This document shows positions 8,301 through 56,225 of a DNA stretch of 64,000 bases, piece after piece (position 1 is the stretch's first letter; each line of letters starts with the position of its first letter). The stretch lies in assembly GCA_964106915.2 (NCBI GenBank), contig OZ066916.1. One strand, given 5' to 3'. This stretch comes from Podarcis gaigeae (taxonomy: Eukaryota). The notes under the pieces were generated by a model that was given only the letters and a program-made list of their open reading frames with translations, was not told where the DNA came from and ran no database searches. A program made the position numbers and the translations under genes.

Positions 8301-11300
8301 AAGAGATAAGGATCCACCCCTACTTTACTGTAGCACTCTATATTCCTAATGGCCAAGCTGACTTTTGCCATTTCTAGATAGGTCTAGACCAGCGTTGGCC
8401 AAAGTTGGGTCTCCAGCTGTTTTGGGACTACAATTCCCATCATCCCTGACTACTGGTCCTGTTAGCTAGGGATGATGGGAGTTGTAGTCCAAAAACAGCT
8501 GGAGACCCAAGTTTGGCCAACACTGGCATTGAGAAATAATTTGTTCAGTATCAAGATGGCCTGAAATGACTGAAGCCAGCTATATCCAGTAGATGTTTGC
8601 ACAACACACTGAAGGCATGCTGTGTAATGAGTTCCACTTGCCTTCCTGCTACATCGTCAGGTGACAGCCTGAGTCACCTTGACTTGTACTGCGGTGATCA
8701 GGGACAAAGAGTGCAGGGCTCACACTCATTAAAAGACAATGGAAAAAGGGAATTGGAGAAGGTGCTAGATATTCTTACTCTCCTGAGGTTCCCTCTTGTC
8801 TATACAGCTGCATACAAAGCGCATGGCATGCTGCACTATCCAAGCCCATAAACAATAACAACTTTTTATTTACTTTTTATTTACCAAGAGAATTCAGTTT
8901 CAAATTTTAGTTTTGAAATTGCTGTAATTAAGAGAGCTGACCAAATTTTGAGGATTCTGCATGCTGTGCCCTAGATACATATGAAGCAGTGAGCTATAGG
9001 GCCTAATTTTAACATCAGGAGGCCACAGTGGGGATAAGGGTAGGGGAACCCTTTTCTGCTTTATTGTCGGATGCTTTGTCACTCAAACTCCCTCCCCCAG
9101 CCAGGTCAGAAACTGGAATGGTGGAGCACAAGGAGTTAAACTGGGAAAAGGTTTATCTCCTGCTCTTATTTTATATTTAAAAGTTAAATACACAGCACCC
9201 AAAAAAATTGTAACAAAAATGCCTACCATCACCACATCCAGTTTGGCCCCCAATATGCCAATAGATTATAATGAATAATCATTATTAGAACGTGATGAGC
9301 CAGTGCAATTTTGCATTCTTCCACAAGATGTCTCTAATTCACTAAATTCTGAATATGACTTTAGTTAATGATGGGTTACACACATCCAAAGAGAATCTGC
9401 ATTCAGAATACAAATCATGTATGTATTCTGATATTTGATCTTAACACAGGCTGGGTATAATTAATGAGAGACAAAGTTATGTTTAACCAATCAAGAACAA
9501 CAGAGCAGCAAGTATTTACCCCAAAACGCTAGTGACTGTGAATTGATTTGTACCTTTAAATATATATATATATCTCCATACTTAAAAAGGGGGATGGATT
9601 TGGTTTCTTATGCTGCTGTTCTTACAGATACTTCCATGACTGTTTTTAGAGACTGTGTTCTAAAATCACTTTATTGTTTATTGGCATTTTTTATGTGGTG
9701 CACTAATCTGGATGCCAAACTGACAAAAGAAATAAACTTCAATTATTTCAGAAGCACTCTTCTACTTTCCTCTACTGAAACAAGTATGCAGTTTACACCC
9801 TTGCTCAGGGCCATGAATCTTTACCTTTCACTCTGAAAGTGAAGCAAGAAAGCTAGGTACGACTGAACCATTACAGTTTCGCAACATTAAGCAAGCGCTT
9901 TGGAACGTCAAGCGTTACAAATATAGGCCTTCCGAACTGGAACATCTAGCCATTTTGATTATCTTAGTAACTAAATACATGTTATAAACCCTTCTTTGCT
10001 AATAGGCAAGGCATTGTTTTAATAAGATCATGTTTTTCAGATAATTACATTTATTCATCAAGAAAAGGCAAATTGTAAATATGGCAGCGCTGCTATTTTA
10101 TCACTACCACTAGCTCTGGTAGTTCCAATTGGAGAACAGCCTTTACCAAAGGTGCCATGGGCTTTGAAGACACTCCAACTCAGGACGCAAGGGAGAAACA
10201 TGCTAAGAGGAAGGCATGCTTGGCAAACCCCACCGTGATTAACTCCAGCCCAGAAACCTATGTCCCCACTGTGGAAAGATGTGCGGATCCAGAATTGGCC
10301 TCCACAGTCATTGTTAAAACTGTGTTTATGGAAGACAATCTTACTCAGCTACAAGCAATCACCAAAGAAGAAGACGACCTACTCTAATTTACTGAAAGTT
10401 ACTTGCTTACCTCATTGACACTTTTTACATCATTGACATTTTTATCTTGCTTCTCGTGTTTTTCACGGTCATAAGCCATTTTCTTCAGCAATTTTTTCAC
10501 AGCTTTGTCCTTTTTCTCCTTTTTCTGACTTTCAGTATTTTGTTTTCTTACTTGGTTCACAAGGAATGTAGGAATCTAAGCAGACATAAAATCTATTATT
10601 AACACCATTGATGCAGTCAGCTCCTCCAAACAAATGTTTATATCCTTCTAGTGACAAGACATATCAAATATGGAATATCAAACACCAATATTAATGTCAA
10701 ACAAGAACAGAATTATATTGTTAAAAATGAGACACAAATGATAGATGCAAAGACATGGTATGAAATATAATTGCACAGAACCTCTTCATAGTAAAACCAT
10801 ATAAGGAGTAGCTAATCATCTCAGGTCAGTTTTTGTACAAGTAACGGGGTCTATATTGGTGTCATGAAATCAGACTCCCCCGCAAGCAGTTTCTCATGAA
10901 TGGTGCTCTGTCTTCCATATTGTTGTTTGCATGTGTGAATAAACCTACAGAAGGGCAAAACTAAGCTTTCAACACTAATGTATATGGAAATAACCAAGAT
11001 ATAACAAAATACGGCACTAGTGGTATAATTCATTCTAGAATTTGTTTTCTGTCTTTCTGTGTAATACATACTCAAAAAAATTGTGTCACCAACATGAAAA
11101 ATTTGGAAAACTCTTCTCTAATGACAATAAGCACTTTTAAACAAACTTACAGTCCATAAAAGGTTTTGGTTTCTAATCATAAAACGCATGACATTTGCTG
11201 TCCCAGCCGCCATAACGAACTCGCTTTGCTCTGTGTTCTTTGAGCCCAAACCATGAAACATGAAGATGTTTGGAGCCATAACCATGGCAACATTCTTTAG

Positions 11301-11610
11301 GGTCATTTTATTTTTATCTCGGTGATCAATTACCCTTTGAAGAAATTCAAGCAGTGCCTGAAAATGAGAACAGGATTGGCAAAGTAGGCATGTGCAAACA
11401 AACAAGAAACATGCTCAAATAGTGCGCTTTTTAAAAAGTATGTTCTAGTTCTAGTATGTGCACAGCGTTAAATCAACTAGTAACTTCAGTAGTTAAACTA
11501 AACAAGTGATTTCTCCAAAAATCAAAGTCAACTTCCTTTTACTTTCAGTAAAAAGAAAGGTAGGCATCTGAAATCTTTATTCTGGATCAGAGATAGCCAA
11601 CATGATGTCC

Positions 11611-11664
<54 letters not shown>

Positions 11665-14600
11665 AATAAATAAATAATTGTCATTGTACAACCTGTGTAC
11701 AATGAAATTAAACAAGCCTTGTTTAACTACAATTTCCATGAGCCCAAGCCAGCATGGCCAATGGTCAGGGTGATAGGAGTTGGATTCCACCAACATCTGT
11801 AGGAAACCACACTGGCTATCCTTCTTCTAACGAAGATATGGTTGACTAGGTCAAGCATATATCACATATTCAAGGTTGCCCTAGATTTTGTTTAGCTGTT
11901 CTCTGGTTCTTTGCAAGACCAGCAGTGACCCTCTCTCTGGGCTGCCTCACTCCTTAAAGGTAAATTTGTGTTAGTGGTTGTGAGATTCATTATGGGGCTG
12001 GGAAGGGACCTTGTAGGCCAACTAGTCTAGCAGAAAATCCAGAGGTAGAGTATCCATCAATGGCTGTCCAGACCCAACTTGAAAACCTCCAGTGTGGAAC
12101 AGTCCCTCTAGTTTTATTGCTAAATTGTTCTTATGGTCAAGTGATTTCTCCTAATGTTGTACTAATAGCTATCCTCTAAGCCCATTAGATCTGAGGCAGA
12201 AGAACAAGTGAGAGCTTTTCTGATATTTGAGGAGTGCTACCATATCAGTCCAGGGACGCAGGTGGCGCTGTGGGTTAAAGCCTCAGCGCCTAGGACTTGC
12301 CGATCGAAAGGTCGGCGGTTCGAATCCCTGCGGCGGGGTGCGCTCCCGCTGCTCGGTCCCAGCGCCTGCCAACCTAGCAGTTCGAAAGCACCTCCGGGTA
12401 CAAGTAGATAAATAGGGACCGCTTACCAGCGGGAAGGTAAACGGCGTTTCCGTGTGCGGCTCTGGCTCGCCAGAGCAGCGATGTCACGCTGGCCACGTGA
12501 CCCGGAAGTGTCTCCGGACAGCGCTGGCCCCTGGCCTCTTGAGTGAGATGGGCGCACAACCCCAGAGTCTGTCAAGACTGGCCCGTACGGGCAGGGGTAC
12601 CTTTACCTTTACCTTTACCATATCAGTCCTCTTATTCAGGGTAAACATACCCATTCCCTTAACCTCTCCTCAAAGGAGAGGTTGTTTCCATACCCCCGAC
12701 CATCCTTTCTGAAACCATTCTAATTTGTCCACATTCTCCTTTGAAGTGTAGTGCCAAGAATTAGGCCCCGCACTTACACCTTTCCCGCAATCAAGATTCC
12801 AGGCCTATCCTTGTGGTAGAAGCATGGCTCTGGAACCCCAACTGGGGAGGAAGAGAAGTGGGGAGTAGCCCTAGGTGCTGTGGGTAGAAGTGTAATTGCA
12901 GAAGTGCTTTTTTAATGGTGAAGTCTTAAGTCTAACCTTAAGAGTATCTCTATTTCCATCTGGGAGAAGGAGGACCAAAAGATTCAGTGCTTGCAGCTGA
13001 TGCTTCTTCGTTGGAAGTTCTGTCAGTGAAACATGCAAATCTCAATTTGTGAGTATGTTTTTGAATCGTTTTGCATTTTCCTCAAAAATATTAATGTTTA
13101 TGGATTTCTCTTGGTTATCTTCACAGGTAAAAAGCAACCAAGACATTTTGACACCTCAGGCAAACCAAAAAATGGCACCCCACTCTCCGTCAGGTAAGAA
13201 GGGGAGGTGAACATCAACATCAGGAACAAAGGAAGTTTAAATGTCTACATTGGGATTGACAGCCCTGTGGATCCTGCTGCCTCACCTAGCATCTTGTTTT
13301 CCGATTCTGTTTCATGACTCAACTGCCACAAGATCCATTATTACCAATTTTGAGATTCACGATTTCCCAGGTAATGCCTTACTTTTGCTACTTTGTTTCA
13401 TAATGTAATGCTTATTAATACAATATTTAGTAGACCAAATAAAAATCCTTCACAGATGAAACATCCATTTATGCCCACGACTATGCAAGGAATTTATGAC
13501 AGTCAGTAAAAAGAATGGCTTAGTGTCACATGCTAAAAAGCTCACTGAAGCACAATGCTCTTTGTTGACCATGCTTCTGGTATTGCTGCATTGCAAGTCA
13601 TTTGTGGTGCTAAATGTAGTATGGGAGTTCCACATCTCTGGAGGATTTCTAAGGCAGCAATTACAACCAACAACAACATCATTAGGTGTGTTCAGCAACC
13701 TTGAAAATCTCTATGTAGACATTTTCTTTAAATCATGGCAGACAGGGTTGCCAACTGGAATAAAATATTGGAGGGAGGTAAGCCCTGCCCTACATAATTA
13801 TTATTTTTTTTCCCACTATGAAAGACATAAATATCGTTTTATGAATTCATCTACTGTTTGCTGAACAGTATGAGGCACTTGTGTACAGAAAACCATTCTG
13901 TGTGTTTGTTTTCAGATGCAAGCAAGCTAATGGACTATTTGCAGAAAATTTCATGGACTCCCTTGCCAATGAAGAATAGCCATGCCCAGAAAAGATTAAT
14001 GGTGCAAGTGGTTGTTTAACTATTCCACATCAAAGAACTATGAGGGAGAACATTTTCCAGAACTGTAGGAACACAATTCTTGTATGTGCAACATGATATT
14101 CTACAACATGGGTTATTAACCTGTAGCCTGCAAGGCCATACAGATTTTTTCTCCTTGTGGCTCTCCAGAACTCCACAAAGTTTGTTATTTCTAGAACTGT
14201 TTGGGGGGGTTAATTACGGAGTCCTCCCCTAGGTTCCCTATAGGGATGTAAGAAGGCTGACCTGGAAAAAAAGGCCTGCTCTGCATAATGACTCCCCTAA
14301 TTCTGAACCAGGACTTATGCTTACTTTGCACATCCTGGAAGGCCTTGAGATACTCCACAGTGAGCAGCGGTTGAGGCAGTTCTCGAATAAAGAGTTTCAG
14401 AAGACTTGCTGCATCGTGCTGTTTTACATTTTCCCAGTGGAAAGTCCCTTCATAAAACTTTGCTTCAAGCTCCTGGCAAAGATTCTAGAAGACAAGAGGC
14501 TGAAAAGTCTTTATGCACTTCACACATACATTTAATGCTTTTAAAAAGGGGGCATATGAAATCGTCTTATTTATCCAAAACATCAACGGTAAAACTAGGC

Positions 14601-17600
14601 ACACATTTTAACATAAAAAACTGAGCTAGGTTTTTGGGTGTGTGTCAATTATATGTCAGGGCGTAGTGCTAAAAATGACGTTTTGTATTTCCTGTGTTTA
14701 TATAATGCTACGTATGCAGTCAAAACAGATACTCCATTTGACAATGGATCTCCTTTGTGCTCCCTGGCCCATTAACAGTATTCAATAGCAAAAGAGAATG
14801 TGCAAAGGCACATTCAGTGTCATGTATCAAAATGCTCTCTATTTATACAACATCTCTAGAAATATGATCAATAATAATAATAATAATAATTTATTATTTA
14901 TACCCCGCCCATCTGGCTGAGTTTCCCCAGCCACTCTGGGCGGCTCCCAATCAGTGTTAAAAACAGTACAGCATTACATATTAAAAACTTCCCTGAACAG
15001 GGCTGCCTTAAGATGTCTTCTGAATGTCAGGTAATTCTTTATCTCTTTGACATCTGATGGGAGGACGTTCCACAGGGCGGGCGCCACTACCGAGAAGGCC
15101 CTCTGTCTGGTTCCCTGTAGCCTCACTTCTCGCAATGAGGGAACCGCCAGAAGGCCCTCGGCGCTGGATCTCAGTGTCCGGGCTGAACGATGGGGGTGGA
15201 GACGCTCCTTCAGGTATACAGGACCGAGGCCGTTTAGGGCTTTAAAGGTCAGCACCAACACTTTGAATCGTGCTCGGAAACATACTGGGAGCCAGTGCAG
15301 ATCTCTCAGAACCGGTGTTATGTGGTCCCGGCGGCCACTCCCAGTCACCAGTCTAGCTGCCGCATTCTGGATTAATTGCAGTTTCCGGGTCACCTTCAAA
15401 GGTAGCCCCACGTAGAGCGCGTTGCAGTAGTCCAAGCGTGAGATAACCAGAGCATGCACCACTCTGGCGAGACGGTCCGCGGGGAGGTAGGGTCTTAGCC
15501 TGCGTACCAGGTGGAGCTGGTAGACAGCTGCCCTGGACACAGAGTTAACCTGCGCCTCCATGGACAGCTGTGAGTCCAAAATGACTCCCAAGTGTTGCAG
15601 ATGTTTGAATTCAAGTGTTTTGAATTCATTTATGGCTCTTCAGATGATTAACACATGATGCCAATCTTCCTAAGCCAGGCAGGTCCAAAGTCCATTTTGG
15701 GGGCCTAATCCGGCCCACCATTTGGTTCAATCTGGCTCCTGTAGCAGTTTATTTCCCAGGGTAAAATCCTAAAAAATCTCAACAACTTCAACCCCCCAAA
15801 AAGGCTAACAACATCGGTTGACCCTATGGTCGGCCCTTACGGCCCTTCACTTCATCAAATCTGGCCCTCTTTTTAAAAAGTTTAGACACCACTGTCCTAA
15901 GTTAACAAGACACCTATCTGCAATTCAACATTCAGAGCAGGTTAAATGAATAGCTCCTGTGGTCTCCACACATTTCTCTCCAAAAAGAGCTTGCATGCAT
16001 GCTTATTTGGCCATCTAAACAGAGGCTTGCAATCACTCTGCATGTTTGGACAACAGGGATTTGTATTGTATTTACCCTCCCCACTCCATTATTGCCTATT
16101 TCATCTCAATGGAGCTATGCTTCAATTCAGCCACTTTGCCAGGTCAAGAAGATTTCTATGCAAGCATAATCCACAATTAGCAGGCCCAGAGTATGCACAT
16201 GATGCTAAATATGAAAACCATCTGCTCTAGATTTAAAATTTGACATGCACAGTGGTAAAAATCAGGTATGAAGTGCAATAAAAAAAGAGGATGAGTTTTT
16301 ATCCAAAAAAAAACCAGTCCATACACAGATGCTCTCAGAGGGACTGAGAGCAAAGACTTGTTTAAGTAAAGGTAAAGGTACCCCTGCCCGTACGGGCCAG
16401 TCTTGACAGACTCTGGGGTTGTGCGCCCATCTCACTTAAGAGGCCAGGGGCCAGCGCTGTCCGGAGACACTTCCGGGTCACGTGGCCAGCATGACAAAGC
16501 TGCATCTGGCGAGCCAGAGCCGCACACGGAAACGCCGTTTACCTTCCCGCTGGTAAGCGGTCCCTATTTATCTACTTGCACCCGGAGGTGCTTTCGAACT
16601 GCTAGGTTGGCAGGCGCTGGGACCGAGCAGCGGGAGCGCACCCCGCCGCAGGGATTCGAACCGCCGACCTTTCGATCGGCAAGTCCTAGGCGCTGAGGCT
16701 TTAACCCACAGCGCCACCTGCGTCCCAAAAAGACTTGTTTACCCAGGTGGCTAACCACAATCCAGGATAACATCAGAGTAATGAAGGGTCAACATGTAGG
16801 AAGAATAGAGTCAATTGTCCTTCATCCTGTCCTTAATTCAATAAAAGAATAGCTATAGCAATGCATACAAAAAGCCTACATTTGTGAACAAACCAGAACT
16901 CACAATGTAATAAAATAAGTTTTGGAAAGGAGGTTTCTGTCACACACACTCCTGCTCAGTCACTCAGCTTTGGCAAAACCACTGTCAGTTGTCCAAGGAT
17001 TAATATAAAATTGTTTTTAAGATACGATTGTTATAATTATAAAATGTCGTAAGGATCTCAAGATCTTGCCACTGAACACAAGTTACCAAATTATTACTAT
17101 TATTAATAAAATAAATGTAATTAATCTAACACTCTCTTTCCAGAATTGAAAAATTAGTTTACCTTTACCCTTGCTGCCACACCCGGTATTCGAAGAAGCC
17201 CTTCTGTATCCAGCTTTCCTTCTTCTATATGGGAAATGAGCTGCAAATTAAAATAGAAAGTATCTCAACTCAAGTTGGCGGCAACTAAAATGCTAGTTGA
17301 AAAATAGAAAATTTGTTCTACTGAAAACTGGAATGCAGCTGTGGCTAAACAGTTACAAGCTTTTCTGCGCACTGATGTAACTATAGGTGCCTTATATGTT
17401 TGCGTTCTGCTGAAACCTAACTGGTATAGAAGAAACTGACTGGTCAGCCTACAGTACTCACTTTTTGAAAAATTAGTGGTATCCGGATGCCTGGCACCCT
17501 CTTCTGATCTTGTTCTAGCAAAACTGACAGTGGAACACCAAAAAGACCAGATTCTGCATGAAACAACAAAAGACAAACAATTGGCTTATGACGACATGAA

Positions 17601-20600
17601 AAATGGTTTCATAGACTCTTCTCCACTATGTTCAGATCAACACAGTTTATAATTAATAAATCCAGACAAACAATTTACAGTCCAATCCTATGTACACTTA
17701 GCAAGGAGTAAATCCCACCAAACAGAGTGGGGTTGAATCGTATGCATATTCACCCAGAAGCAAGTCCCACTGCATTCAATGGGAATTTACTGCCTGTAAA
17801 CATGCACAAGGTTGAAGCATCAGCCAGCTCTGCATATTTGAATAATGCATGCTAGCTGAAAGCAAAAAGTTGCAGACGAACCCTACAAAGCTGACCCACT
17901 TCAGAATTCATTGCAAATCGAAATGTCAATAGCATTTTCAAACAGACATTATTTCTTGCTGCATACATCCCTCTACTACCATATAAATTAGGTACACTTC
18001 ATCTTCTCAAATAGCAGGATTGAAATATTCTTCTGTTTTTACATTTCTGCTATCTGTCTTGGTATTAATTGGCTATTATTGTATCTATTTTTTAAGATTT
18101 TCAAACATTTAAAGCAAGAAAGGGGCTCCAGCAAAAATAAATATACCATAAGTAAAGAAAAGGAGGAATACTTCCAAACATTTAACCTTTGGAATAGCTC
18201 ACTGACACGTACAAGATTGTAACCTCGGTCATTCTATTTCCTGCTGTATGAGTGGCCTGTGAACAGGGCCCATTCTAACTAGAGGGCTTTAGGCAAACTA
18301 TTATTGTCTTTGCCTTAGCTGCTCATCTGCAATATAGGAACAAAAATGCTGGCCTTTCTTTAATAGGGCTGTTGTGAAGGTTGTCGAGATAAAGATATGC
18401 AAGCCTTTGAGCATGTGAAGTACCCTCCCGTCAAGTTAAGTATTGGGTTGTATCCAATGGTTGTGCAAGTGGAAGGCAGCTTGCACAACTGATGTTTCCC
18501 TTCCCTCCTCCTAATCTCCACAGCCCTGGTAGCACCACACCTCCCCACCGAAAAACCTCTCTAGAAGTGAATAGTGTGGACTGTGTTCTATGGGGAAAAA
18601 CCGATTTGCTAAACACTAAGCAAAGGGGACCTCATGCATGTGGAGCTGCCTTCGAGTCATGAAGCAAGTGGACACAGCCTTTATTATTCACAGTGATGCA
18701 GTCACCAACCATAGCTGGTGCTGAGGTAGGGATGGTAGAGTAAACCATTTGATGGAACATCTATAGGAGGCTGCTGAGTCAGACCATTGGTCCATCTAGC
18801 TCAGTTGGCTTACAAACGCCTTGGGTTACAAACGCTTCAGGTTACATACGCTTCAGGTTACAGACTCCGCTAACCCAGAAATAGTACCTCAGGTTAAGTA
18901 CTTTGCTTCAGGATGAGAACAGAAATCGTGCTCCGGTGGCCCAGCGGCAGCAGCAGGAGGCCACATTAGCTAAAGTGGTGCTTCAGGTTAAGAACAGTTT
19001 CAGGTTAAGAACGGACCTCCAGAACGAATTAAGTACTTAACCCGAGGTACCACTGTAATGTCCACACACCAGCAGCAGAATTCTCCAGAATTTCAGACAG
19101 CCATCTCTACCAGATCTAACCCCAAGAAGCGAAGGATTGAACCTGGGACCTTCTGCATGCAAGGCAAATACTCTACCCTGAGCAATAGCCCCTTTTCCTA
19201 TGGAAAGACAATGGGGTTTTCCCAAATCAGAATACCCTCAGGAAAAATCCCATGGAACAAGAAGTTGGACTGAATCAAGACGGTCTCTCTGTAGCCCTTA
19301 AAAATGTGTGATCTGCAGAGACCCTCTATTTCCCAGGGATGAAAGGAAAAAATGGCTATCCTAAAGCAATATTCCATATTCAAGAAGTATTTGGCATAGC
19401 TTTGGTATGTTTAACCGGACACGGCTTTTTTAAGAATATAAAAATGGAAGGTTGTGGAGGAGGGAAGGTTCCTTTACCCTAATGTGGCTGGAAGAAGTTA
19501 TTTTCTGAGCTGTGAAATGAAGATTGTATTCAGAGAACTCAACTGTACCCAGCTGTATCTCCCTCATCACTCACAGTTGCTTTCAATTATTTAGCTACTG
19601 CATTGTCGTCTCTGCTGAACCCTGACTGCAAGTTTTTGCCCAAGAAGATATTTGATTAACTGGTAACATGTTTCAGGTCCTTGTAAAACATTAAAGAGAA
19701 GGTCAGAAATACAGGCAGTTAACAAAATGGAAACGTTTCCTGTATTTCATAGGTTACTTTTAAATCTGTGCAATGCTGCTGCTTCAAATTTAGCTCTGCA
19801 TTATGTTTTATTATTTCTACACATTTTTAATTCATATAAGCTGCACTTAACTTCAGATTGAAGGGAAAGCAAAGGGGGAATCCTCAATCAACCAATAAAT
19901 AAATAAAATATTCCCAGTCCAATGCGTTTAACAAGGGCTGTACTCACTAGAAGCTAATCTGGAAATATACAAAACTTCAGTTTAAAAATAAAACTTTTTA
20001 AATGTAAAAGTCGCATCTAAAACATACAAGTGAAACTAAATAAAAACAATGAAAATGTTAATGGAGAATTTTCAAATATATACAGTCAAAGACACATAAA
20101 TTTGCAAGTCAACAATCTCAAAATCAGTATTAGAGGTCAACTTTCCCTAATAAAAATTCTGTTCTTTTGTGAGTTTCCCCACACTAAACTAAGCCTATTT
20201 TACAGGATATTGACTTTACAGATATATGCATGCAGTACCTATATACACGTTTGTATTTTCAATCAGAGGAGCGGGGAAGCAACACTGCTTTTCCTCTTTT
20301 TTAATAGGAAAAGGACTTGATAGTATGCCATTTAACTTGGTGATCTCAAAATGTTCCCAGTTGCCCATATCTATATTAAAGGTAAATATATATATAAAAA
20401 ACCAATATGGACTGTTGGTTGGGAAGTCCAAAAAGAATCCCTGTATAAGGAGTGGAGAATGATATGAGTGTATAACTGAAGACTTATAAACAAATAAAGA
20501 AAAAGAAGTTACTCATTTGGATTAAATTTGCTTTGAAAATTTGACAGGCCGCCTTTGCTCTGATGGAGGATGCCATCACTCACTCACACACACACCCCAG

Positions 20601-23600
20601 AACTGGAACGAAATCTCATGCCAAACTAGAAACCACAGGAAAAGGTCATAAAGCTGTAATTTTCATAAAGCGTTTGCCTAGAATAGGAACACTGCAATTA
20701 TATTGTTATGTAACATAAATTACAATTTTGTTGAAAGCCTCCAAGTGCAGTCATGTTAAGTTATTTCATCCCGCCCTATAGATCATAATCAATATGGATG
20801 GTTCTCCACAAACAAAAATAAATCATGGTTGAGAGCACTTTTAGAGTTAAGCTTCTAAAGACAGGCAAAGGAAAGAAACGAAACGTTCAAGCAGTGAAAC
20901 AAGCATGACAGCATTAAGGACAAGCTTAGTGAAACACTCCATCAGGTTTAAAGTAGGAAGAAGTGGTATATTCCTAGCCTCGTTTGGCATGATTCAGCCA
21001 GAGTTTGAATCTCTCTCTCTCATTACAGTCAATGCAACTTGAATGTAATTAAGTTGCATTGACTGTAATGAGAGAGCTAAGATCATGCTTAACAGGTCGC
21101 CACTAAACCTGATGGAATGCAAAAATGCTTCATATGGCATGGATTGTACCCATCCTACGCACCTGACTACGTACGCCAAGCCACAACCCTTTAAAACAAA
21201 TGCATTTGGTCTGCAGGTTCTGTTGACTCCCAGTGGATACCTGAAGCCCATTACTTCATTTAGAATACGAGAATACACAATGTGATGCGATGCATGTACA
21301 GTGGTACCTCGGGTTACATATGCTTCAGGTTACATACACTTCAGGTTACACTCTGCTAACCCAGAAATATTGCTTCAGGTTAAGAACTTTGCTTCAGGAT
21401 GAGAATAGAAATCACGTAGCAGTGACGTGGCAGCAGTGGGAGGCCCCATTAGCTAAAGTGGTGCTTCAGGTTAAGAACAGTTTCAGGTTAAGTGCGGACC
21501 TCTGGAACGAATTAAGTACTTAACCCAAGGTACCACTGTATAGCGCATCCCACCAAAGCAAATGGGAAGTCTCAACGACCTTACTTCATTTTTGCCGCAC
21601 CTTCTACAGTTTTCAAGGGGAAACCAAAAAAGTGACCTCAAAGATTACACATATAGAAATGCACATCAACATAGTAGCACTGCAAATGGAAGAAACTGAC
21701 CTTTGGTTTTGATTTTTATTGCTTTTTGTGGCTTCAGTTCTGTTCCAAGGATATCAAAGAGAGCCGTCAGCTCAATTAGTGCCAGAGCGTGGACCTTCTT
21801 CATATCCTGAGGGGCAAGGTCTCCAATCTTTGTTGTACCCGTTTTGTCTTTTGGCAGTCTGAAATTCTAAGAGTTTAAAATAATAGCATTAAAGTCTGCT
21901 CTCTAACAAGCAACAAAAGGAAGCGGGAGCTCGTGCTGCATTTCAGCGGTGCCTATTATTGGCGAAGGTATTATTTTTTGCTATAATAAATTCACTTTTG
22001 CACTCCTAGTTTAAAAATTCCCTCCCCTCCCAAGCATATTATTAAAATTACAGCTTCACTGGGGACTAGTACACTGGTACCAAACTGGAGGTACATGTGG
22101 GGCTGCGGTCTCTGTGGGTAACAAAATAAGGGGTGGAGGAGTTACTGATGCCTTAGAAGTGTTTGAAAGTGGGTTACCCATACCTTGAAAGCGGATTTGG
22201 CTTTTGCCTGTTTGAAAACTGAATGCATGCCAAGAGCACCGTGCATCTTTCTTTAAGCAATCAACGATGGACAAATAAATTCGGACTAGAGCAATGAGCA
22301 CCTGATCACGAAAGTGAAAGTGTTTTCATCCCTAGAAAAGGACCTAAAGCCTGGTCTAAACAGCTGAAGTAGTAAAATAGTTCCTAGAACTATAAATCTT
22401 CAAACTGCAGGTGGTAATGGTGAAGGCTGCATATGTGAACACTTCCCAGCCCATTACTGAACACAGAAAACTAGATTAAGACTCTGCAGTTTCACACTTC
22501 ATTTTCCATGAATGCCCCATTACCAACAATGCAATCGAACACACATATTGGCTAAACACATGTCAACATTCTACATGTCTGAATATGTAGTACTCTCTAT
22601 TTCTTTGAACTTGAAGTTCTCCAGTGTAATTTTGTTCAGTGTAATTTTGCAGAAGATAAATAAATAAGAAACCCCCACAGAATGAAAGATATTAAAGCAA
22701 GACCAAAAAAGCCCCTACAGGAAGGAGTGTGTCATCCTCTTTGCCCTTCAAGACTTTGCCTGCTGGGTCATCTTTGAGCGTAGCTGCCTGCTCCGAAAAT
22801 GATATTTCCAAGTTAATGTCTGTTTCAGTGACTGGAACATCTTCTCTTTGATGATCATAATCAATATGTTGACAAGATGCTAGATGTGGTGAAAAAGAAA
22901 TGGGGGAAATGGTCATTAAAGTTTAAATGCAACTTTTTCCCCACTTCCATCACCATAATTGAGGAGGGTGCTGAATTAATCATGGATTGGCTCCAGAGAT
23001 TCATGAACAGAAAATCTGCTCACAGAATGCTTCCACCTTCTGATAGGTTATGGGAGCCTTTATGAACCTCAGCTGGATCACAGTCCCCTTACACGAGCAT
23101 ATAACTGCTTTGCAATCAAGGCACATTATGAAGATCACAAATTTTTAGAATCCTCCCTCCCCCTAATAATCTTACTGTTGTGCTGTTTAAAAAAAAATCT
23201 ATACTGTACTTCCTAGCATGTAAACGTCCTTGATGGTAAACCGCTATTATGTTACTGTCTCTAGCTTTACAAAGATAATACCACAAGTAATGTGCAGCAT
23301 TGCTCAGTTCCAAAGTTAATAAATTACTATCATTTTTCAATCATGAGGCAAATGTGATGACTACTGCAGCTTTAAATATTTTGTGAAACACCACCTAATT
23401 ATCACAGATTATTATCAGAGATGAGAAAATTACTTCGCTCCCCTACTTTGCTCACTGCCCCAAACCCTAAAGACACTCCCAACTTTTACTAACAAGCTTT
23501 TAGCTTTGAATTTCACTTCAAGAATATTTGGTGCCTTTGAAATGCCAGGCAATTCCTATTGCCGTTGGAAAAACAACTGCCCCCCCCCCACTATGCTCTG

Positions 23601-26600
23601 CTAAAACAACACTGACTATTAGCTCCTTATTACTGACGAGCCTCTGGCACAGCCCAGAAACAGGTGCTGAAGTTTGTACCCAGCAAAACTGGGGCAATTC
23701 TGCAAATGGAACAGATTTCTCTCCCATTCCAATCCTGGCAGCAGAGATGCACTTTACAGCAAGGTTCCCAACAGCTGTAACATATCAGAATATACACAGG
23801 CTGATTTAGCTTTTCCCTTTTCATTCAGTGCTATGAGAGCGTTAGCATATGGAAACTGCCTTTCAGAACTTCTCCATTTCTAAAGGCTCATCAAGAGGCA
23901 CTGGAGAAAAAAGAACCAGATGTTATGAAATTCTTAAATAAAATGCTTGGTAATTTTCCAGACCAAGATTCTACAGCAGTTTACTGGCATAAGCCCTGTG
24001 CTTTTCTGTCTGCCTCTCTGCCTTGTGCTGACCCAGCAGTTTGGCAGCAATCCCATCTTTGAAACTGTTCTTGCTAGTGAATGGCTGCCTGGTGGCTGAA
24101 GCAAACAGAGAAAAGGCTCATTAAGGCTCCTCTAAGCACATATTATTCAGCTGACGGTATCTTTCTGTTTCACAAGATTTTGTATTTCCAACTTGGCTCC
24201 TGCTTATTGAACATGTATTCAGAGTTCTGAAATATATTGATAATAGGTAATATATCCCATTTTTTAATATCAAACTTCATGGGTATCATCCTTATCATTA
24301 GTGATAAAAGCAGTGCTCTTGTTTTTCTCCTTATTTGGAAGCATACCTTTCTCCTGTTTCCCCCACCCCCCAGTCAATTATATACAGGCATTTATGGCTA
24401 TGGTACACAAATTCCTGTTTTGTAATTAGTCATTTTTCTGACCATGCTTCCTTATCCTACTTTTAAGATTTCCTTGTCTCTCAGACTTGGACCTAGCTGC
24501 CTTTGTATAGGCTTCAAAATACAGTAAGGTTGCCAAGTCATTACTCTGGTGTCTTGAGATTTCCATAAATACATCCAAGAGTTGAGGAACTCTAGTTCCA
24601 TTATGAGAGTACAACTGAGTTCAATGTGCTTTAGTTTTATTTATTATGAATTCCCAACAGCCAGATTTATATACCCATCTTAATCCAATGACTGGATTTC
24701 ACAGAGCTAGTCAAATGCAATTGTTGCAATTGTTTTATTAACTTAACAATTGGGTGCAATTGTTTTATTAACTTGTTTAATCTGCTCCTTTACAGTTTTT
24801 GGAAAGACAAATTGGTCAAAGCTTGCCATTAGGGTGTGCAACTGGGGTCCCAACACCAGGCACATAATCTGGAGAGGGAGGCGCTGGCACACAAGACTGG
24901 CTGCTGCCATTGACATTAAACAAATGTTACAACTTTCATTATGCAATATATGGATTGTAAGAGTTTATGAATATTATGATTACCAAATAATAATTATTTT
25001 GGTCTGGTTGCTGTTTATAGAAATAGCAATGGTATTCGATCCACACTGGGAACAGTTATGGTTAATTAGGGCATTGGAGCCACAAGACTAAATCCTTGCA
25101 TCTGATGAGGTTTTTGACTTGGCAGAGATTCTGACACGTGTTTGGGTTGTCTAAAAGACTTCTCCAGAATATGGTCCATATCCTAGAAAAAGCTTTCTTT
25201 TTTAAAAAATGAACTTGTTCAGCAATATATCTTGTTAAGACATTTTAAAATAGAAACAATACAGAAAATTTGTTAAGATTTACCCTCTTTTGTGTCCTCC
25301 TCTTTGTTTTCTTTTGTTCTTACAGACTGGTGTTCACTGTCAATTTCCTAAAACGCAGAAAATAAAATATTCTGAATATTTATTCAGAAAATAAAATAAT
25401 AGACAAGATGTTTTGCTCCCAACTGATCTTAAGACAGACATCAGAAAAATTGCTCTTGCATGGACGTTTTCATGTTTGAATTTCATGTACAGTGGTACCT
25501 CGGGTTAAGTACTTAATTCGTTCCGGAGGTCTGTTCTTAACCTGAAACTGTTCTTAACCTGAAGCATCACTTTAGCTAATGGGGCCTCCTGCTGCTGCCA
25601 CGCCGTCAGAGCACGATTTCTGTTCTCATCCTGAAGCAAAGTACTTAACCTGAGGTACTATTTCTGAGTTAGCGGAATGTGTAACCTGAAGCGTATGTAC
25701 AGTGGTACCTCGCAAGACATATGCCTCGCAAGAGGGAAAACTCGCAAGAAGAAAGAGTTTTCCGTTTTTCGAGGTGCTTCGCCAGACGAATTTCCCTATG
25801 GGCTTCCTTCGCAAGACGAAAGCCCATAGGGAAATCTCCGGGGACAGCGGGGAAGCGCAGCGCGTCTTCCCCACTGTCCTCGGACCTCCTCCGAAGGCTC
25901 GCGGTGGGGCAGAGACCTCCTCCCGCCGCCAGGCTTCGGAAGGCTCCTCCGAAGGCTGGCGGTGGGGCGGAGAGACCTCCTCCCCCCCCCGCCAGGCTTC
26001 GGAAGGCTCCTCCGAAGGCTGGCGGTGGGGCGGAGAGCCCTTCTCCCCCCGCCAGGCTTCGGAAGGCTGCTCCGAAGGCTGGCGGTGGGGCGGAGAGACC
26101 TCCTCCCGCCACCAGGCTTCGGAAGGCTGCTCCGAAGGCTGGCAGTGGGGCGGAGAGACCTCCTCCCGCCGCCAGGCTTCGGAAGGCTCCTCCGAAGGCT
26201 GGCGGTGGGGCAGAGAGCCCTTCTCCCCGTGCCAGCCTTCGGATGGCTGTTCTGAAGGCTGGCGGTGGGGCGGAGAGACCTCCTCCCGCCACCAGGCTTC
26301 GGAAGGCTCCTCCTAAGGCTGGCGGTGGGGCGGAGAGACCTCCTCCCCCCCGCCAGGCTTCGGAAGGCTCCTCCGAAGGCTGGCGGTGGGGCGGAGAGCC
26401 CTTCTCCCCGCGCCAGCCTTCAGATGGCTGTTCTGAAGGCTGGCGGTGGACCGCCAGCCTTCAGAACAGGTCCGGGGACAGAGAAGCGCAACGCGCCTTC
26501 CCCTCTGTTCCCAGACCTGTCCTGAAGACTAGCGGTGGGAGGAGGGTTTTCCTTCCCACCGCCAACATTCAGAATGCTGTTCTGAATGTTGGCGGTGGGG

Positions 26601-29600
26601 AGGAAAGCCCTTCTCCTCACCGCAAGCTCCGGGAACAGAGGAGATGCGCAGCGCGCCTTCCCCTCTGTTCCCGGACCTGTCCTGAAGGCTTGCAGTGGGG
26701 AGAAAAGCCCTTCTCCGCACCGCCAGCCCGGCAAGCGGTTTCCATAGGAACGCATTAATTGATTTTCAGTGCATTCCTATGGGAAACCGTGCTTCGCAAG
26801 ACAAAAAACTCGCAAGAAGAAAAAACTCGTGGAACGAATTAATTTCGTCTAGCGAGGTACCACTGTAACCTGAAGCGTATGTAACCCAAGGTACCACTGT
26901 ACAGAATTTATAGAAAATATTGCCAAGATTTAGAAAAGATTTTTAACACAGTCAGTACTTGAAAACTTTCAAAACTTGAAAGGCCAGAGTTTTGGGGATA
27001 TATGGAGAATCCCTGCTTCAGAAGCAAGGAGCCTATTGTCCTCCAGATGTTGCTGAATTACAACTCCCCCTGTTCCTGACCATTGGGCTGGGGCTGATGG
27101 AAGCTGAGAGCCCAACAACATCTGGGAGACAAAGGATTACCCACAACAGCCTGCATGAAGAACAGCTTTTAAGCATATTGTGATGGCCAACCGTGAAGGA
27201 TGTTTGGAATTTGGAAACTATGAATGAACTTGCAGTATATAACCAAAGGTATAACCGAGTTGTTATTCTGTCTGAACATGTGAAAGTTTGAAGAGCCTAA
27301 AGGGGATAGGGAAATTATTAATATTCATTTTAACAGCTGCTCAATGTACAATCAATTACATATGGAAACCAAAAGGCCCCGTGCCCTAAAAAAATGTATG
27401 ATGAGGTGCTCATGCTGAAACTCATAAATATTAACAGAATTGGAGGGGGCAGACTGGGAAATAAGATTTGTTTGAGAAATGGACCGTTTTTGTTATGCAT
27501 AGGAAACACACACACAAGCAAGTATATAAATATATAATGAAACAGTTGGAATAAGAGCACATTGTTTATAAAAAACAGTTTTGTTGACTATACATTTCTG
27601 ATTTAATTTCTTTGTGCATCCATTTTTTTAAAAAAAGAATACATTGATACACACAAATATTATGCTTGGTCTTTTTAGTTCCAATTACTAGAGATGTCAG
27701 TGAGGTTTGCTGGGCTCAGGCTCAGAATTGAGACTCTGGGATCCTGTAAGGCTCAACCCAAAGGGAGAGGTGAACATTAGAAGGTTAATCCCCCCCCCCC
27801 CCAGTTCAGGTTAACATATTGGGCTGGAAAAGGCTTCCCAGTGCATTCCTTCTTTGCAGAGCAGCCCCAGAGGAAACTGGTGTTGAGGGCAAAAACTTAA
27901 CCCCAAATGGGATCATCTTCCCCCATAGGAGGGAAGGGCTTTTGCTCAGAAGCCCCAATTTTCCACAGTCCCAATCCCAGCTTCTCATTTTATCTGGGCC
28001 TCAGAAAGTCAGCCAAGTTCTTCTTCCTCCCCACAAAAAGCCGGGGGGGGGGGGCTCCGACTATTTCTGAGGCAAGTAGCAGAGAACTTCCCCTTTCCCT
28101 GTGGTTATATGCTTCTGCTAATACTTGAACAGGTTCTTCCAGTGCAGGGAAGTTTGCATATTAATCCAAGGTCAGGTTAGCCAGAACAGGTGCAACCGCT
28201 TCTTGCTCTTGACACTTCTCCACATTCCCCATGAATAATGATATTGATAGCCTTTATTTCAGTATAAGAGCAATCTTTCTCGTAGATTTCCAAACCCTAA
28301 ACTGGGAAGGGTAAATACAAGCACACTAGCGAACTTCCCCAACCTTCCCAACAATCTCCAGATGTTTGGTACTACCACTCCTATTGGACCTTATCAGCAC
28401 AGCACAGCTGGATGGGGTTGATGGGAGTTGCAGTCCAACACATCTGGAGGGCACTGAATTGGAAAAGGCTGCACTACAGAGAAAAGAGGAATCAGTGAAA
28501 CCTTCTATATACATGATGGCTTCTTTCTGCCATCCATTACTGACAGCAGTTCAGACAACACTTTAAGAACGTATTTGCCACCCAATCCTAAGTTTGGAAG
28601 CCCATCAAATTTAGGTACATGTTAAAAAATTGCCTGAAGCAGTGTCAGACCACTCAGGATTGTCTATGTTGACTAGCAATGACACTCCAGGGTTTCAGAC
28701 AAGTGCCATGCCTATAGTCCTACCCAGAAATGCCAGAATTAAAGCTGGCATCTTCTGCATGTGATTCAGATGTTCTACAACTGAACAATTGGCCCTTCGG
28801 TACACATTTTGATGGGACACATTCCCAAGTAAAGGTACACAGGATTGCAGTCCAGGGAAGTGTTTCATATCTTTTCATTACTAGCCTTCTCTCTAGTTGT
28901 TGCTCCTTATTTGGTTTTATGCAGCAACATTTTAGGACCAAATTGCTCCAGAGGAAAACAGGAACCTTTAATTCTTGCAAGTATAAACATAATAGTGCAA
29001 TTGCTGTGTGTGTTATTTCCTATTGTTTTAGTAAGTAATTGATTTTTGTAGCAGTTATTTATGATTTTGAATACAGAACAGCAGCATGTGGCTAAAGGAC
29101 AAACATTTAAATGAGCCTAATATGTGGCTGATGTCACCACAGGTTGAGAATGCAATTACATTGCTCTAAAAAGGAATGCACAGCACTTTTTGATTCAGTA
29201 AAAATAACACAAAGCACCTCTGGATAAATATTCACTTCAAAAAGGGAACTGAAGCACTAGCTAGATCATCTGACAGATTATCGCATCCATAATAAATGGA
29301 GCATCAGCTAATTTATTATTTTATTATTTACTAATTTCATAGTTTAATAGAACACCCCTATGTCTGGCTCTCAGGCACATAAATGAGTAAAGTCTGACAT
29401 TCCCAAAATGGGAAAAGGTGTCTCCTGAACCTGTGCATCTTTCCAAGTTTTCTATACAGGAAATTATTTTTGCAGATTTGTAAAATAGGGAGTCTAACAG
29501 ACAAATGGATTTCTCCATTTTCAGAACTGGAGAAAGCATCGGGATATTGAAAGTCATCCCACAGCTGAACAATCTACATGCCAGCAAATAAACCCTATGA

Positions 29601-36300: not shown

Positions 36301-39300
36301 AAATTTCCAGCTGCCACCAAAACCAGCAGCCACGCACGCCGTTAGTTTCCCTTCAAAGAGTCAGGTAAACCTCACTGCAATGGTGCTACCACAATACTGC
36401 TTTTCACTTACACCCGCTTGACATCATTGGTTGCTGCCAGATGAGAACAGGCAAATGCATGATATAATGATGGCAAGTAGTAAAGTAGCATATACACGTG
36501 AAATATAGCACACATAGCACCCAGTCTAGAGCCCTAAGAGTGGGGAAATGAAACTTGCAATCTAAGAAAGAAGATGTTGAAATGCAAATCATTGTGGTAA
36601 ACAATGTTTTAGCTTATAATTTAACAGTTTTAGCTTTTAGTGTTTCCAAAAGTTACGATATGGTAACTAAGCCATTTCCAAGGGTTCTGGTTTTCTCTAT
36701 TCTTCCCTTCACATGATGCTCCCATGTCATTACAGCAATGTTCCAGATTTTACACAAGCATTCCTCAGCAGACTAGGGTGAGTCCTCTAGGGACAATAAG
36801 ATTCTGGGATTCCAAAAATACCATATTTTTCACTCTATAAGACGCACCAGACCACAAGACACACCTAGTTTTTGGAGGAGAAAAACAAGAAAAAAAATAT
36901 TCTGAATCTCAGAAGCCAGAACAGCAAGAGGAATCGCTGTGAAGTGAAAGCAGCAATCCCTCTTGCTGTTCTGGCTTCTGGGATAGCTGCGCAGCCTGCA
37001 TTCACTCCATAAGACACACACACATTTCCCCTTACTTTTTAGGAGGAGAAAAGTGAGTCTTATAGAGCAAAAAATACGGTAATGTATTATGTTATTTTCT
37101 TACACAATTGTTTTGATATTTCAACAAAACATGAACTGGATGGGAAAGAACCAATAGTTTGCTATCATCTTTTCAAAATCCATGGAGTTTAGAACCATGA
37201 AAAATGTTTGTTTAAAAAAAAGCCTGCTTTGTTTCTGCTACAGCCCTAACATTTATCACTGTGTTTTTCTGCAAATCTTGTTTACTTTCTAGGGAAAGAA
37301 CACAATTGTTTTGGTACAAGGAAAATCTGCTGGACTCTTGGAAGAAGTCTACCACACTGTCACCAAGTTTCAAATGTTTTTTCTCTTATATAGCAATAAC
37401 TTCTGTATACAAAAATGCTATTTTCTAGAATTATTGCTACAAGTTATTAAACAAATCTGGTTAACTAAGTGTGCTGGGGAAATGGCTAAATTCCTTAGAG
37501 ATAATATGCCCTTTAAAATGTTATACACCTGAATCTGGCATTTCTCCACCTTCCAAACCAAGCATTGGTTTGAAGAAAAGATGTTGAAGAGCACTGTGTA
37601 GAAAACACAGTATATAACATTGCATTATCTAGTGAGACATGCCTCAAATTTGCATCGCCTCTTGCAAATCAGCAGTACCAGTTGAATATGCAAATAATGT
37701 GTGCTGCTCAGGTACAGGAACATAGGAAGCTGCCTAATGCCAAGCCAGACGATTGGCTCATTTAGCTCAGTATTGTTGACACTGGCTGGCAGCTGCTCTC
37801 CAAAGTTTCAGTCAGTCAGGGGATACTTCAAGACCTAATTGGAGATGTTATATACTCTATGTCACTGAGCTGCAGCCCCTCTCCAACTTGTACAGCTTTA
37901 AATTGTGATTGACAGCTATCATGCATATTAACATTAATACAATAAAGAAACAAAAGTATTCCTTTCTACTAGGCTTTTTTCACTTGCAGTGGTACCTTGG
38001 TTCTCAAACTTAATCCATTCCAGAAGTCCGTTCCAAAACCAAAGCGTTCCAAAACCAAGGCATGCTTTCCCACAGAAAGTAATGGAAAATGGATTAATCC
38101 GTTCCAGATTTTTAATAACAATCCCAAAAAAACCAATTTAACATGAATTTTACTATCTAATGAGACCACTGATCCATAAAATGAAAGCAATAAACAATGT
38201 ACTGCAGTCACACAATCAATCAATCAGTAGCTGAATTGGGTTCCACGCAGTCACACACACACAAAAAGAGCCACAAAAATGCAAAATAAATAGCAAAAAA
38301 CAGACGGACGTCAGTGTAACAATCCACACGGAAGTGTGGCACTCAAAATGGAAGTGTAACACTCAAAACGGAAGTGTGGCACTCCAAACAGAAGGGTGGC
38401 ACTCCAAACAGAAGGGTGGCACTCAAATTGCAAGCGTAAGACTCAAATAGGCTCACCCAATAGGCTTCATAGCTGAGTGGGAATTTGAAGTCGAGTTTCC
38501 CAAGGACTCGTCTGACATTCTAACCACTACACTAGCCCTTACTAGTTCACCAACATCTTCCATAGTATTTGAAAACCTAAGAAAGGAATGGATCATGCAG
38601 AACAACAGTTACACTCAAAATATGCCAGATTAGCTTAATTTATTCCAGATCAAATACTTTGGATTTAGAAAACTTTTTACAGAAGGCCTGTGACTGCCAG
38701 AAACTGCTGATGGGATTCCCTTCCCAGCTCACCCATTGTGGCCACAGCCTCCTCTCTCGGCCTTCCCTCCAGCATCACATTTGGGTTTCAAAAAAATCCT
38801 CATACCAAAGCACAGGAAGGGGGTTTGAAGGTGAAATACATTCACTTGTGAAGGAATCACATAGGCATAGATTGGTGTCAATGCCTCACATATGCATATA
38901 CAGTGGTACCTCGGGTTACATACACTTCAGGTTACATACGCTTCAGGTTACAAACTCCGCTAACACAGAAATATTACCTCGGGTTAAGAACTTTGCTTCA
39001 GGATGAGAACAGAAATTGTGCTTCTGCAGCGCGGCGGCAGCAGGAGGCCCCATTAGCAGTGGCGTAGCGTGGGGGGTGCAGGGGGGGCTGGCCGCACCGG
39101 GCGCAACATCTGGGGGTTAGTGTTAGGGGGCGCAAATCCACGGGTTAGGGGGCGCAAATCCATGGGTTAGGGGACGCAACTTACTTGCCTTGCCCCGGGT
39201 GCTGACAACCCACGCTATGCCACTGCCCATTAGCTAAAGTGGTGCTTCAGGTTAAGAACAGTTTCAGGTTAAGAAAGGACCTCCGGAACGAATTAAGTAC

Positions 39301-42300
39301 TTAACCCGAGGTACCACTGTACAATCAGACACACTGAATGATGTTATGACTTCAAATCAGTAACCTCTGGGGATTAGCTGAATGCTTTGGCGCTATCAAC
39401 AGGCATTTTTTTAAGTACATATATAGAATGACAAGGCATGTAACACAAGAACATAAATCTTTCTTTTCACTCCTCCCCCTCCTCCCCCCCTCTCTCTCAC
39501 ACACAAAAATTCTCAATACCGTAGCTTTCCATTTGCATATCAATCCTTACTCAGGTTTGAAGTCTATATTCATATCTCCTGCCATTTGATGATAAGGACA
39601 GAAATGCAAGAAATAATCTATCAGGAAATCTCCTTAGTCTGCCAGAAATCACTTCATTAAAAGCAGCAATCCCTGTCAGTCCCACAAAGTGTTGTATAGG
39701 AAACCAAATCTTATTAATCACACTTCTTTCAACATTGCTTCTTCAAATACTTTTACTGCAGGGTCATGTATCAAAGGTTAAATAAGCGCAAAACTCAAAC
39801 TCCTCCCCTGCACATAGAGGCCAGATTTATGATTTGCCTTGCTAACAGGTATTCCTTCAGTAGCTAAAGAATTTATAACTCCAATACAGTATTTATGGCA
39901 AGTGCCAATGCAAACAAGTGAAAACAATTTTGCCTCTACTCACTGACTTTTGTAAATAATGGTAATTGTTCAAATATTTGCTTTTTGACAGAAAAAGTTG
40001 TTTTTACAATGAAGATTTCAGGTATCAGAAAGGCATTAAAGATCCTGAATTTGCACTTGAGTGTACTTCCATGTTCCTTAAAGGAAAACTCAAAATTAAA
40101 AAGTGTCACTCAAAACTAAAGCAAATGTTCCACTCTGCACTAAAATAAACAAACTCGGTGAAGATATTTAAATATTTTGATTGTCTTCCAAATAAATACA
40201 AGCCCAACAAAAAGTCTGACCACCTATTACTGAGCTTACAATGCTCAAGGTTTAAGAACTGAAGCATCCCAAGATGTCAAAGGTGTCAATAGTTGGACAA
40301 AGCCATCACCTACTTCCAAATCTGTCTGAAAATTCTCATTTCCGCTACACTTTTCTACCAATGCATTCATAAAAGGATATATGGAGGAACCCATCTGCCA
40401 CAGGACACATGCTCCAATATTGAATTGCAATGATGTGTGGATTCCTACACTAATTGGTTATGAAGCATCAAGCATGCAATCTTTACCCTCTTCTTGTAAA
40501 CCTAAGAGAAGACTTTGCTGGATCAGACTAAAGTCCTATCTAATCCAGCATCCTGTACGCTCAGTGGTCAACTAGACGCTTCTGGGGAACCCGACTGCAA
40601 CAGCATTCTTTTCCCTTGTGATTTCCATAAACTGATAGTCGAACACATACTGCCTCAACTGGAGGCAGTACACAGCCATAATGGCCAATAGCCTTATTGT
40701 CAATGAATCTGCCTAATCCCCTTTTAATGCCATCCACATTAGCAGCCATCACAAATTCCAAAACTTTAATTATGTGCTGTGTACCACTCCCTTTTTTCCA
40801 TCCTGAAACTTCCAATATTCAGCTTCAACAGAATGTCTCGTTTCTAGAATTATGAGCAAGAAAATCTTCTCTCTATCCACTTGCCACACACCACATACAA
40901 TTTTCTAAACTAAAAGGCTGAAATGTTGCAACCTTTTGTCGTGGTGGAGTTGCTCCAGCCCCTTGATCATTTTGGTTACTCTTTTCAGAACCTTTTCCAA
41001 CTCTACAATATCCTTTTGGGAGATGAGGTAACCAGAATTTAACACATATTTACTTTTGGCTTTTGAAGGTGAAATCTTTGTTTTAGACCAACAGGGGCAG
41101 AAACCTTTACACAAAATGCATTTTGAGGTCACATATATTGGAGAGTGCACTGATGAAGCCAGGATCTTGCTCTTACCAGCAGCTCTCAAATTTCAGCAGA
41201 ACCCTGTGTGATGCTAAAATTTAGCGCTCCCTTACTTATCAAGCTCCTTTCTACATCACTGTTGTGGGTCCCAATGGCACTGGTACCCAGTCCTGCCAAA
41301 CCAGTCACACTACCCTAAAACCACCTTTGCTCTTACACAAGTTCAGCATACACACTTTTAAGAACATGGAGCACAGGGCTTATATCAGGTTCCATACAAT
41401 CTTTCACCTGTGGTGTAAATCAACCTCACCTAATGCATTTTGCGTAAATCATTAAAATTTGAAGTGAAGGAAGAGGCTATAATTTTTATTTTTTAAAAAA
41501 TTATAGCCTCTTCCTCCACTTCATATTTTATGAACATGTGTTTATTTATCTGTGGGATCTGTCGGACAGATGCTTGTAACAAAATCCACCTTATTTCCTG
41601 TAGATGAGAAAGCCATTGTTAATTTAAAAGGAAACAGGAAAACTTGAATCTGAACAATGCCTTAAAAGGAAAAAAAATCAAATACATTTATTTTTGAGTA
41701 ACAATGCCAAGGTGTGTTTATGATAAAACCAGTTGTGTGCCGTTACACAACAGATTTATTACACCAAACAATTGTGGTTTTTTTCAGTAGTTGGGAACAA
41801 TGTATTTTAAGATGATGCATCAACAGCTGGGCAGAAATAATTCTGGATACAGTGGAAGTAAAAGACTTATCTAGCTGACATTATTTTTCTGCTACAAAAT
41901 TGGAGGGTAGGAGTGGTATAAAACCAACTGAAATCTAAGTTCAGGTTTGGAGAACACTGGCAATTCAGAGCTGAACACCAGGCTACACTGGAAATGCTCT
42001 CTGACACCAGGCTCCATCTTACAATACGCTCATGTTCAAAAGCACAGCCAGGTATAAGATAAGAAATTTTGGTATCTACAACTGATTATAGCAGGAGGCT
42101 GCAAACTGTTGGCAAATCTAGGTAGAGAAAGCATTAGCTGATCAGTTGGTGAGTGAGTAAAAAACATAGTGCACATGTTAAAAATACACCAACAACCTGA
42201 GGGAAAATTTACAAATTGTCAATGAGAGAAGACTGTCCAGAAGTTTGAACAGGCACAAGAAAATGTTCCATCAAGGATTCAGTAGCTTGGTGATCATTCA

Positions 42301-55983: not shown

Positions 55984-56225
55984 CAGTAATAACTCTGGTT
56001 ATGAACCATCCTCCTTGCAAATGCTTCGGGTTACGAGCTCCGCTAACCCAGAAGTAGGCGCTCCTGGTTGCGAACTTTGCCCCAGGATGTGAGTGGAAAT
56101 CACATGCCAGAGGCATGTGCACAGCAGGAGACCCCATTAGCAAAAGCACACCTCAGGTTAAGAACGGTTTTGAGTTGAGAATGGACCTCCAGAACGAATT
56201 AAGTTCATACCCAGAGGTACCACTG
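55984..56225 (+). mobile_element. Diverged Tigger-like MITE related to family A
   Basis: Right end ccagaggtaccactg-TA; internal cgctaacccagaa and ccccattagc. Confidence 0.75.

Follow-up and report, generated by a model that had tools for sequence, protein, structure and literature searches.

Inverted young Squam1 SINEs around ARHGAP18 exons 9 and 10 in Podarcis gaigeae: a probable chance pair from a recent insertion burst

Two young, near-identical short interspersed elements (SINEs) of the Sauria/Squam1 family lie in inverted orientation on either side of coding exons 9 and 10 of ARHGAP18, in a 64,000-nt stretch of the genome of the wall lizard Podarcis gaigeae (assembly GCA_964106915.2, contig OZ066916.1; "the window" is this whole stretch). 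Most probably (about three chances in four), this is a chance pair from a recent burst of insertion, which in the pre-mRNA would fold into a stem of ~360 bp and lead to editing and at most minor circles or skipped transcripts, with no selected switch. The locus is a new instance of a known arrangement, of a sort that so large and recent a burst of SINEs should yield.

The SINE pair and the exons it encloses

Copy A (12253..12615, plus strand) is a full-length element of 363 nt and lies antisense to the transcript, in intron 10 of ARHGAP18. Copy B (16365..16726, minus strand) is full length at 362 nt and lies in intron 8, sense to the transcript. Their 361-nt alignment contains 5 substitutions and 1 indel (98.3% identity). 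They form the longest inverted repeat of the window and stand tail-to-tail around exons 9 and 10, 3,749 nt apart. The exon 10 donor and copy A are 321 nt apart, and 1,880 nt separate copy B from the exon 9 acceptor. Each has its own target-site duplication (TSD), of 14 nt for copy A (12238..12251 on the left and 12616-12629 on the right, plus strand) and 13 nt for copy B (16729..16741, with the other copy at 16352-16364, minus strand). No competing copy of the same family was found within intron 8 or intron 10. An older Squam1 copy in intron 1 (45340-45682, minus strand) is ~80% identical and is inverted relative to copy A at a distance of 33 kb.

Both copies are ordinary young members of their family, and no difference from Sauria SINE/Squam1 was seen in length, boxes, tail or TSDs. 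The accessible text of the published descriptions gives a length of ~360 nt, A and B boxes, an (ACCTTT)n tail, and a TSD beginning with T (PMC10670947, PMC10058329, PMC13295347); the boxes are internal RNA polymerase III promoter elements (PMC10058329), and the (ACCTTT)n tail is at the 3' end (PMC13295347). Copy A has an A-box-like motif at 11 and a B box at 65, both copies end in 2-3 units of (ACCTTT)n, and the lengths of 363 and 362 nt fit. Family members also have a run of Ts ~10 nt upstream of the TSD (a Tn-TA signature); both TSDs here begin with TA, with three upstream Ts for copy A and only two for copy B. ARAGORN and Rfam returned no intact tRNA and no known RNA family in the SINEs. 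From the literature, insertion of both copies was presumably driven by Bov-B, the LINE to which the 3' end of this SINE family is homologous. Copy A carries a consensus-like 5' splice site motif (12425-12433), antisense to the transcript. No pyrimidine-rich acceptor was found in copy A or copy B, so exonisation looks unlikely.

A tblastn search with the 668-residue P. muralis ARHGAP18 protein (P0013) placed 15 coding blocks in the window, and only blocks 9 and 10 fall between the SINEs. Exon 9 (14325..14484, minus strand; 160 nt) corresponds to RhoGAP profile positions ~31-83, and exon 10 (12937..13019, minus strand) adds 83 nt. The resulting 243-nt block has AG/GT ends and is in phase 0 at both outer ends. 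It encodes residues 372-452, identical to P. muralis at 81/81 positions, within a RhoGAP domain at residues 340-484, and hence accounts for 81 of the 145 domain residues (56%). Should skipping occur, its donor would come from exon 8 (17163..17242, minus strand) and its acceptor from exon 11 (11151..11357, minus strand), both outside the loop. The exon 11 sequence matches ARHGAP18 of Podarcis muralis, raffonei and lilfordi at 100%, and that of Lacerta and Zootoca at 99%. The original prediction of an inverted, ~98% identical pair that arose by two independent insertions, brackets exactly exons 9 and 10, and encloses an in-frame 81-residue cassette in the RhoGAP core therefore agrees with the alignment, the separate TSDs, the coding blocks and the exon phases.

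What would the two possible RNA products encode? A skipped mRNA would keep its reading frame and would likely be dead as a GTPase-activating protein (GAP), given the loss of over half of the RhoGAP domain; in a bird gene model with the same 81-residue deletion, the Pfam RhoGAP score falls from 143 to 45 bits. The skip would retain an arginine motif in exon 8, which is presumably the arginine finger. A PDB search returned distant RhoGAPs only. A 243-nt circle would have an open coding frame without a Met. The absence of stops had been offered as evidence in its own right and does not serve as such, because any phase 0-0 coding block stays open when circularised. As a sign of translation the open frame was rejected for the same reason, and it has no in-frame Met.

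The bird model just mentioned, P0048 (KAJ7395728.1), joins exon 8 exactly to exon 11, which raises the possibility that skipping or circularisation of exons 9 and 10 is an older property of ARHGAP18, with the SINEs as bystanders. However, P0048 is the sole protein among 120 listed (234 found) that covers a junction-spanning query, is one of 120 listed in both searches, and is a submitter-supplied singleton model from a scaffold of 744 kb; its deletion is therefore probably a prediction artefact or an assembly gap. The human circular RNA (circRNA) circARHGAP18 tabulated in PMC12218994 uses exons 6-8, and no exon 9-10 form was found in the literature listing. RNA from organism A, described below, shows the 9-10 joint only. 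A SINE-independent origin is therefore extremely unlikely.

The cassette itself is highly conserved. The full cassette spacing is present in 111 of the 120 orthologues listed (mean cassette identity, 93%); of the others, one is longer, one lacks exactly the 81 residues, and seven could not be measured by motif (five short fragments and two that contain the cassette on alignment). Given this conservation, loss of the cassette is unlikely to be favoured. A retrocopy of exon 9 was considered and rejected, because the exon has a single match in the whole genome (G000). Separately, DNA contigs of one sample (X15) break at the exon 9 acceptor (14455-14484); a search of the genome gave no further copy of this exon, and the break is probably a graph artefact.

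A recent burst and its chance expectation

Copies A and B belong to a very young and very numerous set. In a genome of 1.51 Gb, a Squam1 20-mer was counted 11,559 times and a 49-mer had 9,177 exact matches, with control patterns giving 0 in each case. At least 11,559 copies thus share a common 20-mer, in at least two sub-lineages, and this burst is a source of both species markers and inverted pairs. Divergence was measured in A, B and 22 further copies taken from 20 fetched loci, making 24 in all, each at least 300 nt long and at least 90% identical; the median difference across the 276 pairs is 1.7%. The 98% identity between copies A and B is hence simply the age of the subfamily. Gene conversion or local duplication between the two was rejected, because unlinked copies resemble copy A more than copy B does: 9 of the 22 other copies have just 2-3 differences from it, against 5 in 360 for copy B. 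Copy B carries a 1-nt diagnostic insertion and two changes in common with L005, L019 and L020. On this sequence evidence, A and B stem from different source sub-lineages.

How often should such a pair arise by chance? At 7.6 copies/Mb, a Poisson model predicts ~182 inverted pairs no more than 4.2 kb apart across the genome. The first 100 listed copies on C1, which are too few to test for depletion of inverted pairs, gave 4 neighbours within 6 kb among 99 intervals (2 inverted and 2 direct), with 4.6 expected. Two other tail-to-tail inverted young pairs were seen among the fetched loci (L001:2615-4496, 1.3 kb apart, and L003:2604-8813, 5.5 kb apart), and their copies are 98%-99% identical to copy A. 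The closeness and similarity of A and B, which had been taken as something special, are therefore unremarkable: identity is typical of the subfamily and close inverted pairs are expected in number. In simulation on the ARHGAP18 layout, 1.3-2.0e-3 of genes have an internal exon bracketed by young copies in inverted orientation within 5 kb. With 150-200k internal exons assumed for a genome, ~15-31 exon-bracketing inverted young pairs are expected genome-wide. Copies of all ages are far more abundant, with 107,000-131,000 Squam1 copies in two Podarcis species (PMC10670947, Table 1); at that number, about one third would have an opposite-strand partner within 5 kb.

Comparison with relatives places both insertions recently. 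The closest organism among the samples, C (X15), shows 1 difference in 1,890 nt, and its contigs run unbroken and at full depth into the copy A tail and both ends of copy B. This suggests that the X15 sample is homozygous for both insertions, although the assembly may itself derive from this sample, which would then not be independent. Organism D (X17) shows 34 differences in ~2,230 nt. Past 12616, one X17 contig has another 552 letters that depart from copy A, and a second aligns from the first base of the copy B TSD with 39 letters ahead of it. Organism A (X20) has 548 such extra letters at the copy A site and 9 at the copy B site, the 9-letter case being weak. If the sites are empty, the X17 and X20 contigs start at 11686, 11724 and 16313, where a microsatellite ending at 11674 and a poly-A run ending at 16313 adjoin the starts; contigs would break at such places. 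From this contig geometry, and with the extra letters themselves not displayed, we infer that both SINEs are absent in organisms D and A, and hence that the insertions are recent and lineage-restricted. The original prediction of recent insertion is borne out to this extent; its suggestion that the insertions may be polymorphic is not, and the one sample of the closest organism, X15, points to homozygosity. Recent, lineage-restricted Squam1 insertions are common, given the thousands of presence/absence loci in Podarcis; for example, 19,914 and 31,580 such loci are tabulated for P. muralis versus P. raffonei (PMC10670947, Table 2).

What the stem may do

The flanking introns of exons 9 and 10 could pair over 361 bp at 98.3% identity, and the A/B duplex is predicted at -841 kcal/mol, versus about -160 for each arm alone. 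A stem of this kind would be a substrate for ADAR. We envisage the following sequence of events. First, a recent burst would have produced >11,000 near-identical copies, two of which inserted independently around exons 9 and 10 by chance. Second, in the pre-mRNA, the sense copy B of intron 8 would pair with the antisense copy A of intron 10. Third, the stem would undergo adenosine-to-inosine editing, by analogy with mammals. Fourth, it may favour back-splicing, with circles as minor by-products, and may allow loop-out skipping of exons 9 and 10 with a minor skipped mRNA. Stem formation in vivo, and any effect on splicing, we infer rather than observe; detectable low-level products have roughly even odds, and there is only a slim chance that the pair has a functional role.

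The RNA examined is mainly from organism A, and calling a back-splice joint needs 3 reads. At position 12958, in exon 10, read depth is 10 for X23, 1 for X24 and 0 for X21. Only one exon joint appears in organism A RNA, 13019-14325, which connects exon 10 to exon 9 in 1 read of X23 and in a 1,355-nt contig of X1. No back-splice joint is listed in X23, X24, X21 or X1 at this shallow depth; 0 of ~10 reads sets an upper bound near 25%. A 2,950-nt contig of X13, from organism B (SINE status not given), contains exons 10, 9 and 8 in order and without differences, and no back-splice joint was found among the X13 matches listed. These contigs confirm the exons and carry no information on any effect of the SINEs. 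The proposal of a regulatory cassette is accordingly not supported: no back-splice or skip junction was seen, in RNA that is shallow, comes mostly from a species inferred to lack the SINEs, and was mapped to stretches that do not span exons 8 and 11 together. An A>G difference at 12958 (10/10 reads in X23, plus the X1 contig) was considered as editing and rejected, since it is T>C on the transcript strand and thus an allele. The SINE arms themselves are overlain by reads from thousands of near-identical copies.

The pair may also be inert, with exons 8-11 spliced co-transcriptionally before copy A is made or able to pair, so that no circle, skip or editing results. The 3.75-kb loop, the distance of copy B from exon 9, and the good pyrimidine tracts (judged by eye) of the exon 9 and exon 11 acceptors are all consistent with this. 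In addition, the genome-wide analysis of inverted Alu loop-out by Denisko et al. 2026 (PMC13019027), in its accessible text, describes an effect that is modest overall, with structure linked to skipping only at exons with weak acceptors and many constitutive exons amid inverted Alus. However, TBXT exons 6-7, enclosed by a 4,188-bp pair of inverted Alus, gave a detectable minor skipped transcript (PMC10901737), and the present stem is more perfect. An inert pair is therefore improbable, albeit a serious alternative.

At the other extreme, the SINEs may have created a TBXT-like functional cassette, in which a species-specific isoform without most of the RhoGAP fold escapes nonsense-mediated decay, or an abundant circRNA is made, and control of RhoA is altered. 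The frame-preserving block, the near-perfect stem, the position of the deletion within the RhoGAP domain, and two lineage-restricted SINEs that are apparently homozygous in X15 would all suit such a cassette. Against it, tens of such pairs are expected by chance, neither product appears in the shallow RNA examined, and none of the 21 lacertid ARHGAP18 records listed (SINE status not given) lacks the cassette. A functional cassette is thus very unlikely. The fullest version, with an abundant circRNA and an in-frame GAP-less isoform restricted to this wall-lizard lineage as a squamate counterpart of the TBXT Alus, is scarcely more credible.

Several points nonetheless weigh against a chance pair with at most minor products. 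Its stem identity is far above that of typical Alu pairs, so the effect could exceed "minor"; indeed, skipping in engineered mouse Tbxt increased with stem identity (PMC10901737). The configuration is rare for any one gene, at ~1 in 500-800. The RNA came from animals other than the organism that carries both SINEs. Finally, homozygosity in X15 fits fixation, but does not indicate its cause.

Neighbouring features and known systems

Within the loop, intron 8 contains a 5'-truncated 3' fragment of a long interspersed element (LINE) of ~730 nt (~14860-15590, minus strand), which we take to be L2-like. It has a 221-codon open frame resembling a reverse transcriptase C terminus and ends in a (TAA)n tail. 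Contigs of organism D (X17) and organism A (X20) join across it, making it a third lineage-restricted insertion within 4.5 kb, sense to ARHGAP18. An AATAAA at ~14895, just before the (TAA)n tail, might give intron 8 a polyadenylation site. Elsewhere, members of another repeat family lie at 18800-19057, 21290-21540, 25488-25700, 38890-39321 and 55997-56227, with inverted members 93%-96% identical; those at 21426/25488 bracket ARHGAP18 exons 5-6 and provide further possible reverse-complementary matches. Intron 3 contains a GC-rich tandem array of ~9-10 60-nt units (25850-26730).

How does this locus compare with known systems? No squamate study of SINE pairs that drive back-splicing, skipping or editing was found in a search that covers subscription literature poorly, and the Darevskia genome paper, in its accessible text, offers speculation only on such an effect in squamates (PMC9498476). 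In TBXT, loop-out skipping is attributed to AluSx1-AluY for exon 6 and AluSx1-AluSq2 for exons 6-7, and skip isoforms were observed and were lost upon Alu deletion (Xia et al. 2024; PMC10901737). Like TBXT, ARHGAP18 has inverted intronic SINEs around exons, lineage-specific insertion, a similar two-exon geometry (4,188 bp in TBXT), and an in-frame skip (as for TBXT exon 6). Unlike in TBXT, the two elements here are young alike, at 98% identity, and the putative skip would remove the bulk of a catalytic domain. The locus resembles those of Denisko et al. in having both repeats within 5 kb of the exon block, although their unit is a single exon and here it is two. Across five mammals, circRNAs have been tied to young, species-specific SINEs and described as splicing by-products (Gruhl et al. 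2021; PMC8516420). The ARHGAP18 pair is likewise young, species-specific and placed in introns flanking constitutive exons; it differs in being in a squamate and in having a putative circle only.

The single locus is ordinary, and its value is as a natural test case of whether Squam1 pairs act in lizard RNA as the Alus of primates do, through back-splicing, skipping and editing. Some tens of similar pairs are probably present in the genome, and the question is better posed genome-wide. A near-perfect stem, a frame-preserving block, and relatives that apparently lack both SINEs together provide a built-in control.

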